Source: an uncultured Acidobacteriaceae bacterium
Lineage (GTDB): Bacteria; Acidobacteriota; Terriglobia; Acidiferrales; UBA7541
Direction of reading: 5' to 3'
Assembly: GCA_964407845.1 (NCBI GenBank)
Contig: CAYOXF010000104.1
Location: 250-64,249, forward strand
DNA: 64,000 nucleotides
The first letter of the stretch is position 1, and every line of letters begins with the position of its first letter. Shown in pieces: positions 2,584 through 63,997 of the stretch. The notes beneath the pieces are model-generated. The model had not been told where the DNA came from and did no database searches. It saw only the letters and a list, made by a program, of their open reading frames with translations. The translations under genes were made by a program, and so were the position numbers.

Positions 2584-3498
2584 GTGGTGGCGGATGAAGA
2601 GCCGAAGTATCTCCGGCGCCAAAAGCCGGTCGAGATCAAGCGACGAAAATTCAGCCGACAGGCCTGGAAGACATACCTTCGCGTGACGATGTGGACGGCC
2701 GTCGGTTTGGCTGGCGCGGGCGCTGCGTATCAATGCGGTCGCTTCCTGCTGACATCGCCCGAGATGGCACTGCTTCATCCCGACCAGATCAGTCTCGAAG
2801 GCAATCATTACGTCACGCCGGACAGCGTGCGCAAAGTTTTTCTTCGGGATCGCGGTACGAGCGTCCTCCGAATTCCCATTGCTGAGCGGCGGCGCCAACT
2901 GGAAACGATTGCCTGGGTTGAGCAAGCAGCCGTGCGTCGCGTATTGCCGAACCGTATCCAGGTCGAGATTACCGAGCGCACGCCGATTGCGTTTTTGCGT
3001 GACGCAGGCGACCTTGCGCTCGTCGACGTGCACGGCGTGATCTTGGAACGTCCTCTGGAAGGCGACTTTCATTTTCCTGTGGTGACCGGCATCAGTCGGG
3101 AGATGCCGCTTGAAGACCGGCAGCAGCGCATGCGGCAGTTGTCAAAATTCATCCAGGAGATTGGTTCGGTCAAGCGAGATGCAGCCGACGAGGTGAGTGA
3201 GGTCGACTTGTCAGACGCACGTGACTTGCGGGCGACGCTCACCGGCTTTGAGAACCAATCGGCGTCGGAAGCCAGTGCCCCGGACCGATCGGCGCCGGTC
3301 CTTGTTCATTTTGGAGACAGCGATTTCGTCGGAAAGTATCAGACCTTAGTCGATGAGTTCGGGGCGTGGCAGGCGAGGGCAGGGCGCATTGAGTCAGTCG
3401 ATTTGCGTTTTAGTCGCGAAGCCGTCGTGAATCAAGATGTCACACCTTCGGCCGGCCACGTGCTGGCCGCGAAAGGGACCGAGGGTCGGCCGCACTGA
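2584..3498 (+). CDS. ftsQ: Cell division protein FtsQ (POTRA domain)
   Basis: It has a single N-terminal TM (MWTAVGLAGAGAAY) and a POTRA-like segment (VRRVLPNRIQVEITERTPIAF). Its position between murB and ftsA fits FtsQ. Confidence 0.8.
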   Translation: MVADEEPKYLRRQKPVEIKRRKFSRQAWKTYLRVTMWTAVGLAGAGAAYQCGRFLLTSPEMALLHPDQISLEGNHYVTPDSVRKVFLRDRGTSVLRIPIAERRRQLETIAWVEQAAVRRVLPNRIQVEITERTPIAFLRDAGDLALVDVHGVILERPLEGDFHFPVVTGISREMPLEDRQQRMRQLSKFIQEIGSVKRDAADEVSEVDLSDARDLRATLTGFENQSASEASAPDRSAPVLVHFGDSDFVGKYQTLVDEFGAWQARAGRIESVDLRFSREAVVNQDVTPSAGHVLAAKGTEGRPH

Positions 3499-3557
3499 GT
3501 TTTTGCAACTGCAAGACCGAGTTCTACAAAAGCAGAGGAACCCAAGGAGCAGGGGAT

Positions 3558-4772
3558 TTGACCAAGAAAGAACGACACATTGTGGCGCTCGATATCGGAA
3601 GCACGAAAACGTGCGCGCTGGTCGGCGAAATGGAAGACGACGGCGGAGTGAAGTTCGCTGCCCTCGGAGCGGCTGAGTCCAAGGGCTGGCGGAAAGGCCA
3701 GATCGTGAATCTCGACCTCGCCGTTAGTTCGATTCGGCGGGCTGTCGAAGAGGCTGAGACCATTGTGGGCGTGCCCGTAGAATCGGCCGTCATCGGCGTG
3801 GCGGGCAAACACGTGCGCGGAGTAAATAGCCGCGGCGGAATTACCGTGGGCGCCAAGCCCCGCGACATTCAGCGCGATGACGTGCGTCGTGCGATTGAGG
3901 CTGCGCGCGCCGTGACGCTACCGGAGGACCGCGAAGTACTGCACGTTTTGCCGCAGGAGTTTTTTCTCGACGGTCAGGACAACATCCGCGATGCGATCGG
4001 TATGGTCGGCCAGCGGTTGGAGGCCAACGTCCACATCGTGACCGCATCGGGTACGGCGACACAGAACATCGTAACCGCTGTGAATCGCGCCGGTGTGCGT
4101 GTGGACGATACAGTGCTCGAGCCCTTCGCCTCGGCCGAAGCCTGCCTCACCCAGGATGAGCGCGAGCTGGGCGCGTGCGTGCTCGATGTGGGCGGCGGGA
4201 CGACGGAGCTCATTGCCTACGCGGGAGGAGTGGTGCGGCACACAGCGGCGATTCCCGTCGGTGGTGATCATTTTACGAACGATCTGGCCGTAGGGTTACG
4301 AACGCCCATCCCGGAAGCCGAGAAAATTAAGCGCGAGCACGCCCAGGCATTCCGCGAGTTGCTGGGCGAAGATGTTCCCATTGAGATCGCGAGCGTGGGT
4401 GACCGCCCGTCGCGAACGATTTTCACGCGCATGGTCGCCGATATCGTTGGACCGCGCGCGCAGGAGCTTTTGGCCCTCGTTCGTGATGAGCTGCGGCGTG
4501 CCGGATTGGAATCGCAAATTCCCGCCGGAATTGTGCTCACCGGAGGTGGGGCGCATCTGCGCGGTTTGCCGGAGCTAGCTGAGCGTGTTTTCAATCTGCC
4601 GGTGCGCGTGGCTCTGCCGCGGGGCCTTGCTGAGATGAGCGAACAAGTTTCTCAGCCTGAGTATTCCACTGCGATCGGACTCGTTCTGTACACGGCGCGT
4701 ACACGTCGTGTTTCAGGAGGGCGTCCGACCGGCTTTCTGGGGAAGTTGAAGAGCATGTTTGCGGGGGCGTGA
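3558..4772 (+). CDS. ftsA: Cell division protein FtsA
   Basis: Actin-like ATPase motifs ALDIGSTKTCALVGE, VLDVGGGTTEL and IVLTGGGAHLRGL. A TTG start is preceded by AGGAGCAGGGGA. Confidence 0.95.
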   Translation: MTKKERHIVALDIGSTKTCALVGEMEDDGGVKFAALGAAESKGWRKGQIVNLDLAVSSIRRAVEEAETIVGVPVESAVIGVAGKHVRGVNSRGGITVGAKPRDIQRDDVRRAIEAARAVTLPEDREVLHVLPQEFFLDGQDNIRDAIGMVGQRLEANVHIVTASGTATQNIVTAVNRAGVRVDDTVLEPFASAEACLTQDERELGACVLDVGGGTTELIAYAGGVVRHTAAIPVGGDHFTNDLAVGLRTPIPEAEKIKREHAQAFRELLGEDVPIEIASVGDRPSRTIFTRMVADIVGPRAQELLALVRDELRRAGLESQIPAGIVLTGGGAHLRGLPELAERVFNLPVRVALPRGLAEMSEQVSQPEYSTAIGLVLYTARTRRVSGGRPTGFLGKLKSMFAGA

Positions 4773-4805
4773 GCGGTTTCGGGAGATTTTCCTAGGGGAG
4801 GGAGC

Positions 4806-5981
4806 ATGGCACCAAAGGAATCGAACCTTCGGGTCTCATTTAGCGAAGAGCCAGCAGACGGCGCCAAGATCAAAGTCATCGGCGTCGGCGGCGGCGGCTC
4901 GAATGCGGTCAACCGGATGATTCGCGCCAAGGTCGAGGGCGTCGAATTCATCGCGGCCAATACCGATTTGCAAGCCTTAAAGCTTTCGCAAGCGCCGGTA
5001 AAGCTCCAGCTGGGTGCAAAGTTGACCAAGGGACTGGGGGCGGGCGCGAACCCCGAGGTTGGCCGGAAGGCGGCGTTGGAAGATACGGAGAAGATTCTCG
5101 AGGCTCTGGACGGTGCGGATATGGTGTTTGTCACCTCCGGTCTCGGCGGAGGTACCGGCAGTGGCGCAGCGCCCGTGGTAGCGAATCTGGCCAGCGAGTT
5201 GGGAGCGCTGACCGTCGCTGTCGTTACGAAACCGTTCGCGTTTGAAGGTAAACGCCGCATGCACCAGGCAGAGCAGGCACTGGCCGAACTCATCGGATCG
5301 GTCGACACGGTCATCGTGATTCCCAACGAACGGCTGATGGAATGCGTCGAGCAGGGTACCAGCTTCTTTGAGGCGTTCCGCATCGCCGACGACATTCTGC
5401 GGCAGGCGGTGCAGGGGATTTCCGACATCATCACAATTCCGGGCATCATCAACCGTGATTTTGCCGATGTGCGGACGATCATGTCCGGCCAAGGCTTTGC
5501 GGTGATGGGCACGGCCGTTGCGTCGGGATCGAACCGCGCGATCGACGCCGCCAACCGCGCCATCAACAGCCCGCTGCTCGAAGACAACAACATCAACGGC
5601 GCACAAGGAATTCTGATCAACGTCACCGGGTCATCGACGCTTTCGCTTCATGAAGTGCACGAAGCATCCTCGATCATCCAGAAGGCGGCGCACGAAAACG
5701 CGAACATCATCTTCGGTGCCGTGCAGGACGATCAAATGAAGGAGTCTGTGAAGATCACGGTGATCGCAGCGGGCTTCCGCGAGATTGCCAGCAAAAAGGC
5801 GCAGACGCGGCCCTCCTATTTGCCGAAAACGTGGAAGGCTGGCCGCGACATGAACATTGCTCCCGAGCAGACCAACATCTTGCAGCAAGTCGCGCACAAT
5901 GTTAGCGATCTTGCTCCGGAAATGGCTGCCGATGATCTTGACGTGCCAACCTTTCTCCGCCGCCAGGCGCAAAAGGCGTAG
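4806..5981 (+). CDS. ftsZ: Cell division GTPase FtsZ
   Basis: [17 protein letters not shown], the tubulin signature [13 protein letters not shown], and the conserved C-terminal peptide [12 protein letters not shown]. Confidence 0.97.
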
Positions 5982-31125: not shown

Positions 31126-31926
31126 ATGGACCTTGGACTTCGAGGCAAAGCGGTACTCGTCACCGGATCGAGCAAGGGAATCGGCCGCGCGATCGCGCTG
31201 GCTTTCGCGCGCGAAGGCTGCCAGGTTGCGATCAACGGCCGGCACGCCCCCGAGCTAGAAGCCGCTGCCGACCAAGTGCGCGCTCAAGGAGGTACGGTGC
31301 ACTCGGTCGTCGCCGACGTCACCGAAGCGGAAGGTGCTCGGCTCACCGTCGTCGAGACGGTTCGACGCTTCGGCTCGATCGACGTTCTTGTCAACAACGC
31401 TGGCGGTGTTGGCCGTTTTGCCGGCTTTGACGAGCTCACTGACGAAGACTGGCTCGATGTGTTCCGGTTGAACGTTCTATCGGCGGTCCGCGTGACCCGT
31501 GCCGCCCTTCCTTACATGCAAAAGCAGAAGTGGGGCCGCATCATTAACATTTCTTCCGAGTCCGGCACTCAACCCGACCCCATCATGCCTCATTACAACG
31601 CGTCGAAATCCGCCCTCAACAGCCTTACAAAAAGCCTGTCAAAGGCCTACGGCAAAGACGGAATACTCGTAAACACCGTCTCACCGGCCTTCGTTCGCAC
31701 GCCCTTGGTCGAAGAAATGCTTCAGCAGCAGGCGCGAACGCGAGGCGTTTCGGTCGATGAAGCGGAACAGATTCTTTTGCGCGAGTTTCGTCCGAATATC
31801 GTTCTGGGCCGTGCCGGCCGGTCGGAGGAAACCGCCGGGGTCGTTGTTTTTTTGGCGTCCGAGCAGGCCTCCTTCATCACCGGATCGAACTATCGCGTCG
31901 ACGGGGGTTCGGTCGCAAGCCTGTAA
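31126..31926 (+). CDS. SDR-family oxidoreductase
   Basis: Classical SDR motifs TGSSKGIGRAIA, NNAG and S...YNASK. Confidence 0.9.
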   Translation: MDLGLRGKAVLVTGSSKGIGRAIALAFAREGCQVAINGRHAPELEAAADQVRAQGGTVHSVVADVTEAEGARLTVVETVRRFGSIDVLVNNAGGVGRFAGFDELTDEDWLDVFRLNVLSAVRVTRAALPYMQKQKWGRIINISSESGTQPDPIMPHYNASKSALNSLTKSLSKAYGKDGILVNTVSPAFVRTPLVEEMLQQQARTRGVSVDEAEQILLREFRPNIVLGRAGRSEETAGVVVFLASEQASFITGSNYRVDGGSVASL

Positions 31927-33742: not shown

Positions 33743-33873
33743 ATCTTCGTCTGGACCTCCTTGCCCAAACGCGGGTGGGGCTTGGAACGTAGTTTCGGTC
33801 CTGTTCTCGGCTGTCGTTTTGCTATAATTTGGCACATCTTGACAGAAATTCCGACTTAGCCAAAAGACAGCGC

Positions 33874-34803
33874 ATGGACTTCGATCACCTCGTTACTTTT
33901 GTCGAGATTGCCAAACAAGGGAGCTTTTCGCGCGCCGGGCAAAAGCTGTACCGCTCCCAGCCCGCGGTGAGCGCGCAAATCCGGCAGCTTGAGCAGGAGT
34001 ACGGTCAGAAGTTGTTCGACCGCGTCGGGAAATCTGTGCGCCTTACGGTGGCCGGGGAAACGCTGCTGGAATACGCCGGCAAGCTCCTGACGCTCCGCAA
34101 CGAATCGTTGCGGGCGGTAGCAGATCAATCCACCACGCCGCACGGCACGCTGGCGATTGGCGCCAACGAAGCCACTTGCCTCTATGTGCTGCCGGATATC
34201 TTTGCAGAATATAGCCGTCGCTTTCCTGGCGTCCAGATCAGTGTCTACCGGAACTTCAGCCACAAGGTTCTTGAGAAGGTCGAGGACGGCACCGTGGATG
34301 TGGGGATTGTCACGTTGCCGGTGAAGTCTCCGAGCTTGAAAGTCCACTCGATTTTCCGCGACCGTTTGGTTCTAATGGTCAGTCCTTCGAACCCGCTGGC
34401 GTCGTATAAGACCGTGCGCACCAGCGACGTGGCCGAACAGCCTTTGATCTTCCCGAAGATGGGATTCACGCGTCAGGTGCTCGACAAACAGTTCCGTCCG
34501 TTCCGCTCGCGCCTGCGGGTCACGATGGAGTTGGCGAGCGTCGGCATGATCAAGCGCTTTGTCGCCGCCGGTCTGGGCGTTTCCGTAATCAGCGAGAGTT
34601 TCGCGCAAGACGAGGTTCGCGCGGGTCAGGCCAAACTGATCCCGATCTCTGACATGGAAGTGTGGCGGGAGCTGGGCATTGTCTACCGGCGCGACCGCAC
34701 CCTTCCGCGCTCCGCTTCCGCGTTTGTGGCGCTGGCTCGCCATGGCGTGGGCTCCGCCGCGGGCGAGCATCCCGATGGCTCCCGCGCCGCCGTTCACCGC
34801 TAG
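33874..34803 (+). CDS. LysR-family transcriptional regulator
   Basis: N-terminal HTH (FSRAGQKLYRSQPAVSAQIRQLE) plus a LysR substrate-binding domain. The start is ATG 33874. Confidence 0.9.
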   Translation: MDFDHLVTFVEIAKQGSFSRAGQKLYRSQPAVSAQIRQLEQEYGQKLFDRVGKSVRLTVAGETLLEYAGKLLTLRNESLRAVADQSTTPHGTLAIGANEATCLYVLPDIFAEYSRRFPGVQISVYRNFSHKVLEKVEDGTVDVGIVTLPVKSPSLKVHSIFRDRLVLMVSPSNPLASYKTVRTSDVAEQPLIFPKMGFTRQVLDKQFRPFRSRLRVTMELASVGMIKRFVAAGLGVSVISESFAQDEVRAGQAKLIPISDMEVWRELGIVYRRDRTLPRSASAFVALARHGVGSAAGEHPDGSRAAVHR

Positions 34804-34883
34804 CGCTTGGGTGTATTATCAGCTTACATTTTCAAGGCGAGTCGCTCGCCCAGTCGAGTTTGTCCTGTTTTGGGAGGACTACG

Positions 34884-36650
34884 ATGGCATCCACTTCCTT
34901 AGAGAGCACCTCGCGGATTCCGCTACGTTCGGTCTTGAATCCGCAAGGGCAGCCCACGGGGGTTTTTGAGCAGTTGTCCATGGCGCCCCGCCTAGACACT
35001 TTGAGCGGCAAGACAGTCTATTTAATCGATGTGGGATTTGCGGGTGGTTACGAGTTTTTGCAGGAGCTCGCGGCCTGGTTCTCCGACAACATGCCCAACA
35101 CGAAGACAGTGCTCCGCCGCAAGCGCGGCAATATGTTTCTAGACGATCCGGAGCTCTGGGCCGAAGTAAAGCAGAAAGGCCACGCCGTGATTTTCGGAGT
35201 CGGTGGTTGAGACGGATGTTCGGCGAGTGTCGCCGAGCACTCCAGGACGCTCGAGCATTCCTTCGGAATCCCCACCGTTCCGATCACGACCGCGCGGTTT
35301 GCCGACTTCATTGAGCGCGACTCTCTGAATCACGGAATGAACTTGCGTTTCAGCTTTACTCCCTTCCCGGTCGTCGGGATGGGCCGTTCGGCGCTGCGCC
35401 GCTATATTGAGGGCGATGATCCCATATCTGGGAAGTCTTTCATGCGAGAGATCATAAGCGGGCTGACCGAGCCATTGACGAGCCGTGAAACAGCGCCCCT
35501 GAGACCAAAGCGCACCGCTCGTCCCAGGCTCGTGGAAGCGGCCGCACAGGAAGATCTCGAGCGCCTGTTTCTGGAAAACGGTTGGACCGATGGCTTGCCG
35601 ATCGTGCTTCCCACCGAAGAGCGCGTGGCCGAAATGCTTACGGGCACGCGTCATGCGGCGGACGAAGTGGTCGGACGGATGACGGTGACGACGACACAGG
35701 AACGCATCGAGTACACGGTCGAAAAAGTCGCGGTAAACGCCGTCATGGCCGGGGCTCGCTCGGAGCACCTCCCCGTGATTCTGGCCATAGCCGCGATGCA
35801 GGAGCCTGCTTTTCCAAGTTCGACCACCTCGTTCGCGCGCATGGCCGTGGTCAACGGGCCGATCCGGAATGAGATCGGCATGAACGCAGGAGTGGGAGCT
35901 CTGAGCCCGTTCAACTATGCGAATTCCGTTATCGGGAGGGCTTGGACACTGATGACTATCAACCTCGCCGATGCGCGGCTGGGCGAGACGTTTATGGCAT
36001 CGCAAGGCCACAACCTGAACTACAACAATATGTGCTGCGCGGAGAACGAGGAGAAAAGCGTCTGGGAGCCTTTTCACGTCGAGAAGGGCTTTCGCGCTGA
36101 CCAGAGCGTCGTCAGCCTGTTTCGAGGTTGGAGCGTCATCAACAGCATGGGCGCGGCCAACTCGATTCGACCCGCGAGTGAAGAGACGGCTATCATGCTC
36201 AAGGCGTTCTCGGCGCTGCGTTCGGCTGCGACGTTGGTGATGGATCCGTTGGTCGCGAAGGGCTTGAAGGAGCAGGGCTTTCAAAGCAAGCGGGACTTCA
36301 GCCAGTGGCTGTCAGACCACGTGGAGGTTCCCGCGGGCCAGTACTGGGGCGCCGACATCATTTACGCGTTTGTGGCGCCACTGGCCCGCGAGGGAGTGGA
36401 GCCTTTCGCATCGTGGGCCAAGCTGCCCAACGACGCCTTGATCAGGCCGTATCATGATCCGGGTCAGATCAACGTCGTGATCGTGGGCGGCGAGACAAAT
36501 CCGCTGTGGCAGACGACGGATTTCTACTACACGCAGAGTGCCTTGGTCGATCCCTGGCGGCCCGAGGGAAATCTGCATCGCGACGCCCGGCCGGTGAGAA
36601 TGCCCGTCGCAATCACTTGCAGCGACGGAACCTGCGGTTTGCCGTCCTAG
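34884..36650 (+). CDS. Candidate selenoprotein: N-terminal UxxC (UGSC-like) domain fused to an uncharacterised ~440-aa domain; in-frame TGA at 35208-35210
   Basis: ORFs 34884-35210 and 35337-36650 are in the same frame. There is no other stop and no ATG/GTG/TTG in the 126-nt gap, which has about 74% GC3. A strong SD (GGGAGGA) precedes only 34884. The context is GVGG-TGA-DGC, and a hairpin follows at 35217-35239. Confidence 0.55.
35217..35239 (+). promoter_or_regulatory. SECIS-like stem-loop downstream of the in-frame UGA
   Basis: TGTTCGGCGA-GTG-TCGCCGAGCA forms a 10-bp stem (one G-U pair) with a GUG apical loop. The loop starts 17 nt after the A of the UGA. Confidence 0.45.
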
Positions 36651-37111: not shown

Positions 37112-38446
37112 CTAGTCGTCGAAACTTCCGGTGACCCCTTGGAATCCACGCCGCGCCTGTTTGAACAACCATTTCATCACCCGCGTTGTGCTGTAGCAGT
37201 AGGCAATGTTGTATCCAAGAGTTGAGAAACAGTGCGGTTCGCACCCCTGTTTCATTTCGTTGAGCTGCTTGGTATCAAACTGATGGTTGGCGACCGTGCC
37301 CCAGTCGTATTTTGCGTTGTACATAGGGAAGCACGGTGCCAGAGTTCCATTGGTGCGGACGATCAGCCAATTCTGCCCTGCACGGCAGCCCCAGTGTTCG
37401 CCGACCCCGCGCATAAAACCCTTCATGTTCTCCAGTCGCGCGATGGAATCGACCATTTTGTAGCCTCGACGCTGTTTTTCGATCAGCCAGTCGAGCAGGT
37501 CGTCTACCTCTGGAAAGTTCTCGGGGTAGATGTAGGTGCCATTTTGCTGGAAATGCTTAAAGTCCTTTTGCTCCATCATGGGCGCTTCGTTGATGTGGAA
37601 AGTGATGGCGATGCCGTTGTCGTGCGCGATTTCGGCGAGTTGCTTTACATCCTCGATGTTGTTCCGACAAATGTTCGTGTTGAAAAACATCGTGTATCCG
37701 TAGCGATACTGCCGCTTCACGAGATACTCAAAATAAGATTTGACGTGTTCAAACGCCTTCGGCAGCCCCGGCTTTTCATTGATGCAGTCCACGGCAAAGT
37801 TGATCGTCGCGATGCCCGCGTCAGCCAGCCGATCGGTCACTTCCGGGCGGAGGAGACGACCATTGGTGGCCAGGTATACCCAGAATCCCTTTTTGGCCGC
37901 ATAGGAAACAATCTTGTGCACGAAGTCGGGCCTCAGCAAAGGCTCGCCTCCGGTGGGTGCGAGCACGCGGCAGGGCGTCTCGTGCAGCCAATCAATTGCG
38001 CGGCGGGCGGTATCCTCGCTCATGCCCTTTACCCGGTTGTCATACGACCAGCAGTAGTGGCAATCGAGGTTGCACTTCCAGTCCGTAAAGAGATAGGCGA
38101 TGATGGGCTGAAAATCACCCGGCAGCAGACGCGACTTGAAATACGGGAACATCCAGCCCGTCATGTTGTCCCATATGCGCGACGGCGGCCATTTCCGCGT
38201 CCCAGTACGAAGGACAGTTTCGTGAGCCTCAATATCGGCGGCGTCCAATTCGTGCAGCAGTTCAGGTTGCTCAGGGAAAACCGGGGTCGGCAGCGAAAGC
38301 TCTTCGGCAGACGGCTTTGCGGGGCGCAGATGCACGGGTTCTTCCGGTGCCTTCTGCAAGAGTTGGTGCAGCGGAACATCGACCCGGAACGGCTGCAAAG
38401 GAATCGTCGGGAGATTTTGCTGGGGAGTTTGGGGACTCTGCGACAT
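37112..38446 (-). CDS. Radical SAM enzyme with a Cys-rich (SPASM/twitch-like) C-terminus and a Pro/Gln-rich N-terminal extension
   Basis: CNLDCHYC (CxxxCxxC) and GGEPLL are present, with C-terminal cysteines in WGCRAG...LAPC...QGCEPHC. ATG 38446 is preceded by GGAGG. Confidence 0.85.
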   Translation of the reverse strand: MSQSPQTPQQNLPTIPLQPFRVDVPLHQLLQKAPEEPVHLRPAKPSAEELSLPTPVFPEQPELLHELDAADIEAHETVLRTGTRKWPPSRIWDNMTGWMFPYFKSRLLPGDFQPIIAYLFTDWKCNLDCHYCWSYDNRVKGMSEDTARRAIDWLHETPCRVLAPTGGEPLLRPDFVHKIVSYAAKKGFWVYLATNGRLLRPEVTDRLADAGIATINFAVDCINEKPGLPKAFEHVKSYFEYLVKRQYRYGYTMFFNTNICRNNIEDVKQLAEIAHDNGIAITFHINEAPMMEQKDFKHFQQNGTYIYPENFPEVDDLLDWLIEKQRRGYKMVDSIARLENMKGFMRGVGEHWGCRAGQNWLIVRTNGTLAPCFPMYNAKYDWGTVANHQFDTKQLNEMKQGCEPHCFSTLGYNIAYCYSTTRVMKWLFKQARRGFQGVTGSFDD

Positions 38447-38580
38447 GGAACCTCCGCGTTGAATGTCCGAGCCAACGGCCCGGGCTGGGTTCGCGCGCCC
38501 CTGCCCGCACAAGGCTAGCAAACCTGACGGCCGAATTACTAGAGCGTCGTCAGCAAAGCGCTTGCGCGCTGGTACTGGAA

Positions 38581-46163: not shown

Positions 46164-46187
46164 GTTATGGCTAGGGAAGAATTCATA

Positions 46188-47123
46188 ATGGATCTGGACC
46201 CTCAGGACCGAGTGGAGAGCAGGTCGGGCCGTCGCGACCATCTGAAGATGCTTGAGGCCGAGAGCATTTTCATTTTGCGCGAGGCGGCGGCCGAGTTTGC
46301 CCATCCTGTCATGCTGTATTCGATTGGCAAGGATTCTTCCGTGATGTTGCGCCTGGCACAAAAAGCGTTCTATCCAGGCAAGATTCCATTTCCCCTCCTG
46401 CATGTCGATACCAGCTATAAGTTTCCTGAAATGATCGAGTTTCGCGATTGGTATGCCAAACACGTCGGTGCCGAGCTGATCGTGCACAAGAATCAGAAAG
46501 CGCTGGACGAAGGTGCGAATCCCTACACGCTCGGTACGCAGAAGTGCTGCGGGTTGCTGAAGACCCGGTCACTGCTGGACGCGCTCGCCGAAGGTGGATT
46601 CGACGCGGCATTCGGGGGTGCGCGTCGCGACGAGGAGAAGTCACGTGCCAAGGAACGCGTCTATTCATTTCGTGACGCCTTAGGCCAGTGGGATCCCAAA
46701 AACCAGCGGCCTGAGCTGTGGAGCCTCTACAACGGGCGCCATCACAAGGGCGAGAGCATTCGCGTGTTTCCGCTCTCGAATTGGACCGAACTCGACGTCT
46801 GGCTCTACATTCACGAGGAAAAGATTCCCATCGTGCCGCTCTATTTCGCCAAGGAGCGGGAAGCCGTGGTGAGGGGCCATTCGATCCTCCTCACGCAAAC
46901 CGGCGTCCGCTTGTTGCCTGGCGAGAAAAAGGAAATGGTGAAGTGCCGGATGAGATCGCTCGGGTGCGTGCCGTGCACGGGTGGAATCCGATCCGATGCC
47001 GATACAGTCCCCAAGATCATCGAGGAGATGATCTCGTTTCGTCGCTCGGAGCGTGAAAACCGCGTTATCGATCATGACGAAGAGGGCTCGATGGAACTCA
47101 AGAAGCGGGAGGGATATTTCTGA
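46188..47123 (+). CDS. cysD: Sulfate adenylyltransferase subunit 2
   Basis: PP-loop [10 protein letters not shown] and the [11 protein letters not shown] block. ATG 46188 follows AGGGAAG. The ATG at 46167 abuts the terminator T-tract. Confidence 0.95.
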
Positions 47124-48880
47124 TGTCCACAACGAGGCCCGAGTCAGCTCGCTCGGCTCCGACGTCAGTGTCGCCCGCCGCTGCCACGGGAATTGCCGGT
47201 TCGCTCACCCGAAACTCCGAACTGCTGCGATTTTCGACCGCGGGAAGTGTGGACGATGGCAAATCGACGCTCATTGGCCGCCTACTCTACGATAGCCAAT
47301 CGGTTTTCGAGGATCAGCTGGCCTCGGTGAGAAAGAGCAAGATCAATCGGTCGAGTGGTCCGATCGATTTTTCGCTTTTAACCGACGGCCTGCGGGCCGA
47401 GCGCGAGCAGGGAATCACCATCGACGTTGCCTACCGCTATTTCGCGACGCCCCGACGCAAGTTCATCATTGCAGACACGCCCGGCCACGAGCAGTACACA
47501 CGCAACATGGCCACCGGCGCCTCGACCGCTGAGGCGGCCGTTGTTCTGATGGATGCCACAAAGGGTGTTCTGCGGCAGTCACGCCGTCATGCCTTTATCG
47601 CCCATTTGCTCGGCGTCGAGCACATCATCGCTGCTGTGAACAAGATGGATCTGGTGGCGTTTTCCGAGGAAGTCTTCGAGCGCATCGCGGCGGACTTTCG
47701 CGCCTTCGCCGATCAGTTGGGAATCGGCGACGTGTACACCGTTCCGGTGAGCGCGCTAGAGGGCGACAACGTGGTGCGGCCAAGCAAACGCATGCCCTGG
47801 TTTGAAGGCCCTGCCTTGCTGGAATACCTGGAGACGATTCCGGTCGATCGTAAATCCACCCAAGTGCCGTTGCGCTTGCCGGTGCAGTATGTGATTCGGC
47901 CAGATGCGAGCTTTCGCGGGTTCGCTGGCCAGCTCGTGTCGGGCGAACTCGGCCCGGGAATGCCCGTTATGGCCCTGCCGTCTCGCGTGAAGACGCACAT
48001 CCAATCGCTGGTCGCGTTTGAGACGGAAATGGAGTCCGCCACTTCGGGCGATTCCATCACCATCACCCTAGCGGATGAAATCGATCTGAGCCGCGGCGAC
48101 ATGCTCGTCGACCCTCAACACGTGCCCTTGGTGGGCACGGAATTACAAGCGATGGTTGTCTGGATGCATTCCGAACCGCTCGATCCCCACAAAATCTATC
48201 TTTTGAAGCACACCACGCGCACGGTACGTGCTCGCGTTCATCAGATTCGTCATCGCGTCGACATCAACACGCTCGAGCACGTGCCGGCCACGAAACTGGA
48301 CATGAACGATATCGCTGCCGTCGACGTAAAAACGACACTTCCCCTGTTTTTCGATCCGTACCGTCTGAACCGCTCGACCGGCAGCTTCATCCTGATCGAT
48401 CCCTTGACGAATGCCACGGTCGGTGCCGGCATCATTGAGCGCGCGATTGACCACGGCCAAGGAGTGCGCCCCGGCGCGACAGGCCACCGCAAGCGCACCA
48501 CTAGAGACGAGCGCCTGCTGCGCTACGGACATCCCTCAGCGGCCATCTGGCTCAAAGGCCGGCCGCACGTGGCCGAATTGATCGAGCGCATGCTGTTTGA
48601 CGAAGGCTGGCACGTCCAGCTCGCCGGCCCGAATGACTTTTTGGCGCACGAGCTGGCGACTGTCGCGAAAGCGTACCGCTCCTCCGGCCACATTACCATC
48701 TTCTCGCCACTGGACGATGGCACGGATCAAAAGCAGATCGTCCGCGCGATATTCGGTCCAGACTCCTTTTTCCATGTGCGGATCGATGATAAGACTGACG
48801 AAGAAGCTGCCCAGAAAATTGTGGGCATTCTGCGCAAATGGCGCGACACCCACTCCGACAAGGGAAAAAACAAGCCGTGA
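47123..48880 (+). CDS. cysN: Sulfate adenylyltransferase subunit 1 (GTPase) with a degenerate C-terminal APS-kinase-like domain
   Basis: G1 GSVDDGKSTLIGRLL, G3 DTPGHEQY and G4 NKMD. In the C-terminal ~145 aa, which aligns by eye to APS kinase, the P-loop position reads WLKGRPHVAEL. Confidence 0.9.
   Translation: MSTTRPESARSAPTSVSPAAATGIAGSLTRNSELLRFSTAGSVDDGKSTLIGRLLYDSQSVFEDQLASVRKSKINRSSGPIDFSLLTDGLRAEREQGITIDVAYRYFATPRRKFIIADTPGHEQYTRNMATGASTAEAAVVLMDATKGVLRQSRRHAFIAHLLGVEHIIAAVNKMDLVAFSEEVFERIAADFRAFADQLGIGDVYTVPVSALEGDNVVRPSKRMPWFEGPALLEYLETIPVDRKSTQVPLRLPVQYVIRPDASFRGFAGQLVSGELGPGMPVMALPSRVKTHIQSLVAFETEMESATSGDSITITLADEIDLSRGDMLVDPQHVPLVGTELQAMVVWMHSEPLDPHKIYLLKHTTRTVRARVHQIRHRVDINTLEHVPATKLDMNDIAAVDVKTTLPLFFDPYRLNRSTGSFILIDPLTNATVGAGIIERAIDHGQGVRPGATGHRKRTTRDERLLRYGHPSAAIWLKGRPHVAELIERMLFDEGWHVQLAGPNDFLAHELATVAKAYRSSGHITIFSPLDDGTDQKQIVRAIFGPDSFFHVRIDDKTDEEAAQKIVGILRKWRDTHSDKGKNKP

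Positions 48881-63893: not shown

Positions 63894-63997
<104 letters not shown>

Follow-up and report, generated by a model that had tools for sequence, protein, structure and literature searches.

A TGA-interrupted reading frame from an uncultured acidobacterium, very probably a single gene for a two-domain selenoprotein of the UGSC family

Does an in-frame TGA in a 64-kb stretch of acidobacterial DNA end one small gene ahead of another, or does it encode selenocysteine (Sec) within a single gene? The stretch, referred to here as the window, comprises the whole 64,000 nucleotides analysed from contig CAYOXF010000104.1 of an uncultured Acidobacteriaceae bacterium. An initial annotation, made from the letters alone, had joined two open reading frames (ORFs) across this codon into a candidate selenoprotein. 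The analysis described here indicates that positions 34884-36650 are very probably one selenoprotein gene of 588 residues, with Sec encoded by the TGA at codon 109. The predicted protein has two domains, an N-terminal UGSC domain with the pair U109-D-G-C112 at the end of a β-strand, and a C-terminal domain of about 380 residues.

Translated from end to end, the frame has this TGA (35208-35210) as its sole internal stop. The upstream ORF (34884-35207) ends in ...HAVIFGVGG, the TGA comes next, and the reading continues as DGCSASVAEH.... ORFs 34884-35210 and 35337-36650 are thus in frame with the TGA between them, as had been claimed, and the proposed U-x-x-C motif is found as G-V-G-G-U-D-G-C. 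The 126 nt that would be intergenic in a two-gene annotation contain neither a stop nor an ATG, GTG or TTG, and the earliest start codon after the TGA is the ATG at 35337. The G+C content at third codon positions (GC3) of this linker, given in the initial annotation as about 74%, was measured as 0.738, compared with 0.694 and 0.751 in the flanking ORFs. Its statement on ribosome-binding sites was also borne out: GGGAGGA precedes only the ATG at 34884, and direct reading found no Shine-Dalgarno (SD)-like site before the ATG at 35337.

The interrupted frame is kept by bacteria of diverse affiliation. Relatives were collected as 80 loci from a scan of one genome per species, each with a tblastn match spanning residues 1-588 across the junction; with the window gene they make up a set of 81 sequences. 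The 80 relatives come from metagenome-assembled genomes (MAGs) of Acidobacteriota, Actinomycetota, Dehalococcoidia and Bacillota, with identities of 52-82%. Codon 109 is TGA in all 81 sequences and TGT or TGC in none. The G-V-G-G-U-D-G-C context is found throughout (locus L021 has the variant FRVGG), and a stop codon within the 42 codons after the TGA occurs in none of the set. Thirteen of the linker residues are at least 97% invariant (D110, G111, C112, A117, R121, E124, P130, P133, R138, F139, D146, H150 and G151). Entropy per codon position shows the coding pattern downstream of the TGA (0.59/0.49/1.28) as it does upstream (0.52/0.32/1.30), and it is zero at the TGA itself. Continuous homologues, for which a search had been suggested, are therefore represented by these 80 full-length matches and also by more distant uninterrupted proteins, described below. 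Homologues that are all two genes, with a true stop and with a start and ribosome-binding site of their own, were not what was found, since coding is conserved through the TGA.

In public gene calls these genes are present in pieces. More than 7,300 downstream fragments of 437-480 aa are found there, along with upstream fragments of 110-130 aa that all end in G-[VI]-[GAS]-G. NCBI entries consist of such halves only, a few of which carry the name 'UGSC family (seleno)protein'. The split of the gene into two 'hypothetical proteins' in databases arises because gene callers stop at the Sec codon.

A related contig without the motif was also seen. L089 597-1481 (protein P0121) is an uninterrupted ORF from which about 26 codons are missing in frame, precisely the segment with the Sec motif (WAEIK followed directly by LENDSAVPTAPI). 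Because it is known from a single 1.5-kb metagenome contig, the deletion may be real or an artefact of assembly. Other TGA-joined ORF pairs in the window were considered as read-through candidates and rejected; they are adjacent genes or non-coding frames. For example, ftsA and ftsZ (window ~3400-5980, + strand) lie in the same frame with a single TGA at 4770 between them, ordinary neighbours that mimic a read-through candidate.

The residue encoded by the TGA is best judged from relatives that have replaced it. An exhaustive HMMER search with the post-TGA part over 1.84 billion cluster representatives yielded 4,026 relatives, among them uninterrupted proteins of 545-620 aa that align from about residue 105-125 onwards. 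For the alignment to distant relatives the Sec of the window protein was masked as X. Cys is found in the Sec column of P0190 (C-PGC), P0193, P0201, P0206 (C-STC) and P0245 (C-GSC), in agreement with the expectation of a Cys or Sec at this place, and the continuous relatives with Cys there are 545-570 aa long. The second Cys (the C112 column) is kept in seven distant relatives; the motif has been lost in other members. Judged by sequence, the aligned Cys and TGA are a classical Sec/Cys pair. TGA is also the stop codon of ilvC, cysD, cysN and 19 of the 44 long ORFs in the window, and the genetic code is therefore standard, with TGA not reassigned.

Several of the loci contain tandem or nearby paralogues that are likewise long and TGA-interrupted. 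These carry U-P-G-C, U-E-G-C or a second U-D-G-C, each with its own TGA and a downstream hairpin (L012 11783-13576; L018 11782-13575; L070 9517-11163; L072 402-1877; L031 17535-19379; L080 8126-9883). Members with the canonical U-G-S-C, in L090 and L091, also have the long two-domain form with TGA and hairpin.

Bacterial selenocysteine insertion sequences (SECIS) obey a spacing rule between the UGA and the loop, and a G-U in the loop has a role. The hairpin that the initial annotation placed after the TGA (35217-35239; a 10-bp stem and a GUG loop, the loop beginning 17 nt past the A of the TGA) was reproduced, and covariation and compensatory changes were found for it in the relatives. In an alignment of 76 distinct sequences (A1), 87% of helix cells are paired, compared with 21-51% when the 3' arm is slid. 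Changes on both sides occur in 5 of the 10 pairs, and none of 500 shuffles reached the covariation score, a control with a bias, since one of the aligned sequences had supplied the structure. Some pairs are preserved by synonymous changes of both partners: Ala GCG becomes GCC where Val GUC becomes GUG, and Ser UCG becomes UCA where Ala GCC becomes GCU. In one further case, pairing is kept via a double non-synonymous change. Twelve sequences with S-S-A-V-A-E instead of S-A-S-V-A-E have a different hairpin, shifted by three columns with the position of the loop unchanged. When the two registers are treated separately, RNAalifold recovers the hairpin both in the 64 main-register sequences (-10.9) and in the other 12 (-17.9). 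In 72 of the 76 sequences the minimum free energy fold of the sequence itself has a loop at that place. Like the bacterial SECIS of the E. coli fdhF type, this is a hairpin within the coding sequence, directly after the UGA and with the same spacing of 17 nt to the start of the loop; a G-U is retained in the loop of the window clade in both registers. Unlike that type, it has a 3-nt loop, no obvious bulged U and no match here to a curated covariance model.

Genes for Sec insertion have been detected beside more distant members of the family. In L090, a Burkholderiales MAG (JADLEZ010000369.1, 1316-10957), a same-strand cluster interleaves two Sec-form genes with selB and selA. The order is TctC, TctC, a long UGSC gene split at TGA (U-GSC), a flavoprotein resembling thioredoxin reductase (TrxR), SelB, a second long UGSC gene split at TGA, and SelA. 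The SelB has the SelB-specific winged-helix domains. The Sec-insertion genes are here embedded among what are likely to be their client genes. The Sec trait has been documented in Acidobacteriota and is extensive in Dehalococcoidia (PMC12013277, PMC13326102). In the window, a tblastn match at 47231-48190 was tried as SelB and rejected: it is CysN, beside CysD. This sulfate adenylyltransferase pair occupies 46167-48880 on the + strand, and its CysN is the source of the false selB-like match.

The databases treat the TGA as a true stop between two genes, one for a 108-aa N-terminal protein and one for a 437-aa protein starting at the ATG at 35337. Gene callers yield exactly those fragments, and an in-frame ATG lies within 42 codons after the TGA in 31 of the 81 sequences. 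This arrangement is nonetheless extremely unlikely: the window has neither a start codon nor an SD between the TGA and 35337, and the 42 post-TGA codons are conserved as protein, with their invariant residues and coding entropy pattern. The TGA falls inside the Pfam UGSC domain, distant relatives run through uninterrupted with a Cys in its place, and the frame is kept in the whole set. A pseudogene, or a sequencing or assembly error that turned a Cys codon (TGT or TGC) into TGA, might be considered for a contig that is metagenome-assembled, the more so with the motif deleted in frame in the related contig (P0121, L089). The identical TGA in 80 independent assemblies from four phyla, never TGT or TGC, and purifying selection on both sides of it effectively refute such an origin.

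Several observations do weigh against a selenoprotein gene with a SECIS after its TGA. Neither the 64 kb of the window nor the regions flanking the 80 related loci contain tRNA-Sec, selA, selB or selD. Rfam has no model, SECIS included, that matches the hairpin at the gathering threshold or at E <= 10. A 63-nt stretch folds at -27.4 kcal/mol (z = -2.2, with 5 of 200 shuffles as stable), so that on the single sequence the stability is modestly above chance and the comparative data carry the weight. From the unsplit 76-sequence alignment RNAalifold did not return the hairpin and gave a weak unrelated structure (-3.4 kcal/mol), because two hairpin registers are mixed in one alignment; splitting resolves this. 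Part of the conservation of the hairpin is protein constraint, since the helix sits in conserved coding sequence. Given that Sec machinery was not observed in the 64 kb of this genome, the UGA might be read through without Sec, near-cognate or reassigned decoding then placing Trp, Gly, Cys or Arg there, or might serve partial, regulatory read-through with a mostly truncated product. This is very unlikely where TGA ends ordinary genes of the same window, where the aligned residue is the Cys of a CxxC and not Trp or Gly, where a conserved, covarying hairpin lies at the SECIS distance, and where L090 has selB and selA in the midst of family members. It has also to be asked whether the protein is a selenoprotein with a hairpin that arises only from the coding of the conserved peptide C-S-A-S-V-A-E, its real SECIS being elsewhere or atypical. 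The helix does encode that peptide, and the Rfam result, the modest z-score and the failure of RNAalifold on the mixed alignment would agree with such an origin. It is rendered unlikely by the synonymous third-position double changes and the paired non-synonymous changes that keep pairs, by the S-S-A-V-A-E sequences that form a new hairpin in a shifted register with the loop in its place, and by the paralogues with different peptides that also have a hairpin there. The reading preferred here is thus a single selenoprotein gene in which the hairpin assists decoding of the TGA; its features are collected in Table 1.

Table 1. Features of the selenoprotein gene and its upstream neighbour (positions in the window)
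Feature	Position	Strand	Remarks
LysR-family regulator	33829..34803	+	Pfam HTH_1 + LysR_substrate; immediately upstream; adjoins the gene in 18/80 loci
Shine-Dalgarno GGGAGGA	34872..34878	+	5 nt before ATG 34884
Single coding sequence (predicted)	34884..36650	+	588 codons + TAG stop (36648-36650); Sec = codon 109
UGSC domain, residues 28-171	34965..35396	+	Pfam PF24696, 63.3 bits (cut-off 25); TGA in the middle
TGA, read as Sec (U109)	35208..35210	+	TGA in 81/81 sequences; Cys in aligned column of distant relatives
U-D-G-C, putative redox motif (U109, C112)	35208..35219	+	sole invariant Sec/Cys positions in the whole protein
Former 'intergenic' linker, codons 110-151 of the UGSC domain	35211..35336	+	126 nt
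SECIS-like hairpin	35217..35239	+	10 bp including one G-U; core 35220-35226/35230-35236; GUG loop 35227-35229
C-terminal domain, function unassigned, residues 209-588 (~380 aa)	35508..36647	+	AlphaFold pLDDT 91.8, pTM 0.91
Motif G-W-T-D-G-L-P-I-V-L-P-T, residues 233-244	35580..35615	+	at least 97% identical in 81 sequences
Motif P-S-S-T-T-S, residues 311-316	35814..35831	+	invariant
Motif N-Y-N-N ... E-N-E, residues 379-389	36018..36050	+	invariant; E-N-E-E part persists in distant relatives

The initial annotation had pointed to a resemblance of the N-terminal part to the UGSC family, and the match to PF24696 (63 bits against a cut-off of 25) agrees with this. All 15 full-length relatives scanned match the same model. 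With NCBIfam NF041046, a model of only 147 positions, the score is 53.6 bits, under the 125-bit equivalog cut-off. Since PF24696 is passed and NF041046 missed, the window protein is placed in the wider family and is not an equivalog of the modelled proteins. The literal U/C-G-S-C motif is absent; the window protein and all 80 relatives have U-D-G-C, with the spacing and position of UxxC retained.

Ever since the Sargasso and Global Ocean Sampling (GOS) surveys of 2005-2008, the UGSC-containing protein has ranked with the most abundant selenoproteins predicted in bacteria; a thioredoxin (Trx)-like fold has been proposed for it, and the GOS survey had 255 Sec and 21 Cys forms (PMC2398784). According to a 2026 review the family is still uncharacterised (PMC13188914). 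A Trx-like Pfam match was found in neither the window protein nor the 15 relatives, and a sequence search of the PDB with a UGSC domain gave only E >= 0.7. The window clade resembles the family in its UxxC with Sec at the end of a β-strand and in the predominance of Sec over Cys; no Cys form occurs among the 81 species. The long two-domain architecture, TGA and hairpin are shared with the U-G-S-C members of L090 and L091. In contrast to the family as modelled, it has U-D-G-C rather than U-G-S-C and misses the NF041046 cut-off, and it comes from soil and peat MAGs of Acidobacteriota, Actinomycetota and Dehalococcoidia, not from marine samples.

The suggestion that the fusion of the two domains might be undescribed did not survive. 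Two-domain proteins of about 550 aa from Ottowia thiooxydans and Variovorax sp. LjRoot290 (P0335, P0331) already bear the names 'UGSC family (seleno)protein' and 'UGSC-like domain-containing protein', and long forms with U-G-S-C exist. The Ottowia and Variovorax proteins have the same architecture and C-terminal motifs as the window protein. They differ in having CxxC for UxxC, and their subfamily, that of P0245, is about 34% identical to the window protein. Their genes also lie in a conserved cluster that contains genes for a TrxR-like flavoprotein, TctC, a class-V aminotransferase and RidA, a cluster that the window gene lacks in its vicinity. Because long UGSC proteins have already been named, the window gene is a new, mis-annotated Sec member (the U-D-G-C subfamily) of a known family. 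A 'UGSC/Unknown_1' fusion was reported by Zhang and Gladyshev in 2008 (PMC2398784), and Unknown_1 may be the present C-terminal domain.

The C-terminal domain has no recognizable relative of solved structure. Searches of Pfam, NCBIfam and the PDB with its sequence or profile gave no match. Modelling of the part after the TGA with a shallow alignment gave only middling confidence, with a predicted local distance difference test score (pLDDT) of 73.5. The AlphaFold (AF2) model of the C-terminal domain, built with a diverse alignment, has a far higher pLDDT and a high predicted template modelling score (pTM), as given in Table 1. Foldseek searches with it returned a best E of 0.13 in the PDB with template modelling (TM) scores of at most 0.22, and nothing in BFVD. 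The top Foldseek matches for both C-terminal models are Toblerone-fold cyclic amide hydrolases (cyanuric acid hydrolase, barbiturase). This candidate was rejected, as E >= 0.13, TM 0.17-0.22 and a root-mean-square deviation of 12-15 Å are at chance level; the C-terminal domain has no invariant Lys with which a Ser could form the Ser-Lys dyad of those enzymes.

The invariant residues of this domain are polar and clustered (ExGWTDGxPxxLPT, PSSTTS, NGPxR, NYNN...ENE, H295 and H398), which suggests a binding or catalytic site. The GWTDG-type motif is kept in distant relatives and in proteins that lack the UGSC domain. For example, P0252, P0262, P0265 and P0276 (709-741 aa) consist of two tandem copies of the C-terminal domain without UGSC, and because of these the domain can be regarded as an independent module.

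The genes around the window gene are of limited help. Those for LysR, glucose-6-phosphate dehydrogenase (G6PD), a short-chain dehydrogenase/reductase (SDR), a radical S-adenosylmethionine (radical-SAM) protein, prephenate dehydrogenase and ilvCD were considered as operon partners and rejected, as their conservation is limited to 16-18 close relatives. From its context only, the upstream LysR-family protein may have a regulatory role. The radical-SAM protein (469 aa, window 37112-38521, - strand) is convergent with the selenoprotein gene; it is 88% conserved, in the three closest loci only. An SDR of about 320 aa follows the gene directly in about 29 loci, most of them from Dehalococcoidia, a link that is weak because SDRs are common. 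The loci with the SDR in this position are from Dehalococcoidia and Bacillota; the SDR of the window (31126-31926) is 3 kb upstream. An SDR with a C-terminal extension, often in two tandem copies, follows the gene in L056, L059, L061, L062, L067, L069, L071 and L078-L080. At the far end of the window (63895-63993, - strand) there is a bacterial small signal recognition particle RNA (Rfam RF00169, 70 bits).

Other subfamilies have a more telling neighbour. A TrxR-like Pyr_redox_2 protein of 305-327 aa, with a CxxC at residues 133-139, was found within 0-2 genes of the long UGSC gene in all six motif-bearing loci sampled. These six include Sec forms, and in L091 there are two tandem pairs of a long UGSC gene and a flavoprotein. 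Near two of two motif-less relatives the TrxR-like gene is absent from the visible context. Genes for solute binding and transport (TctC, SBP_bac_5/Opp-type, amino-acid permease) also recur in other subfamilies, and a class-V aminotransferase and RidA recur beside long UGSC genes in Burkholderiales. TctC, aminotransferase and RidA partners were searched for near the Sec-form (U-D-G-C) loci and none was found. Neither the window gene nor any of the 80 other U-D-G-C loci has a TrxR-like gene within 10 kb, so that the reductase link for the window gene is an extrapolation from subfamilies that are about 34-45% identical. In L092 (1571-11102), two motif-less long UGSC paralogues lie among two glycyl-radical enzymes (resembling pyruvate formate-lyase), a radical-SAM activase and an amino-acid permease.

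The selenoprotein subunits GrdB and PrdB, of the glycine/sarcosine/betaine and D-proline reductases, offer a comparison in possible working only. In grd operons the reductant comes from a thioredoxin reductase system encoded alongside. Both the reductases and the long UGSC genes have a UxxC selenoprotein and a TrxR-like neighbour; in contrast, no pyruvoyl partner was found. Kinship with GrdB/PrdB was considered and rejected, there being a single sub-threshold match (P0245, 12 bits against a 602-bit cut-off) and none in the window protein or 15 relatives. That match pairs residues 90-131 of P0245 (the CGSC region) with positions 333-373 of the 431-position glycine reductase selenoprotein B model at E = 0.064; other members do not match. 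The motif of PrdB has been listed as UxxC (PMC2398784).

A possible course of expression and action can be outlined. The ribosome would initiate at the ATG at 34884 behind its strong SD and would decode the UGA as Sec, aided by the hairpin as a bacterial-type SECIS that is expected to recruit SelB and Sec-tRNA. Termination would follow at the TAG at 36648. In the protein, the U-x-x-C pair may cycle between selenol/thiol and selenenylsulfide, acting with a substrate-binding or catalytic pocket of the C-terminal domain in a step that is reductive or of the thiol-oxidoreductase type. In other subfamilies the motif would probably be re-reduced by the dedicated TrxR-like flavoprotein encoded next door; in the U-D-G-C clade the reductant is unlinked and would act in trans. 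This redox role of U/CxxC is plausible, with chances somewhat short of even. The neighbours that recur in relatives (solute-binding proteins, SDRs, aminotransferase/RidA) suggest that the substrate is a small organic or amino acid taken up from outside. It is because of the TrxR-like, transport and aminotransferase/RidA neighbours that U/CxxC is viewed as a redox centre which a flavoprotein disulfide reductase would recycle and which would serve a reaction of the C-terminal domain on a small imported metabolite.

A broader proposal can be made only tentatively. Long UGSC proteins might be a widespread class of two-domain (seleno)enzymes in which a U/CxxC domain, recharged by a TrxR-like flavoprotein, powers a catalytic domain without solved fold relative in the reduction of an imported small organic or amino acid. 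In function such enzymes would resemble the glycine and proline reductases without sharing an evolutionary origin with them, and Sec would be obligatory in the window clade. The family comprises more than 4,000 clusters at 50% identity, from soil Acidobacteriota, Actinomycetota, Dehalococcoidia and Burkholderiales.

The invariant TGA, the Cys counterparts and the covarying hairpin justify the re-annotation of this gene and of thousands of relatives as single selenoproteins, by which Dehalococcoidia and the Acidobacteriota of soil and peat gain an abundant selenoprotein. New here are the strict conservation of Sec in the clade and the covarying SECIS-like hairpin, as well as a long form that bears a confidently modelled domain without solved relative and the linkage to TrxR-like, selB and selA genes in relatives. 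In its usual form the UGSC family carries a large, conserved C-terminal domain without solved structural relative. Together with the TrxR-like flavoprotein beside the motif-bearing subfamilies sampled outside the window clade, the sel genes that can lie among family members and the Cys forms of cultured Ottowia and Variovorax, this gives a functional hypothesis for the UGSC family that can be tested in culturable organisms.

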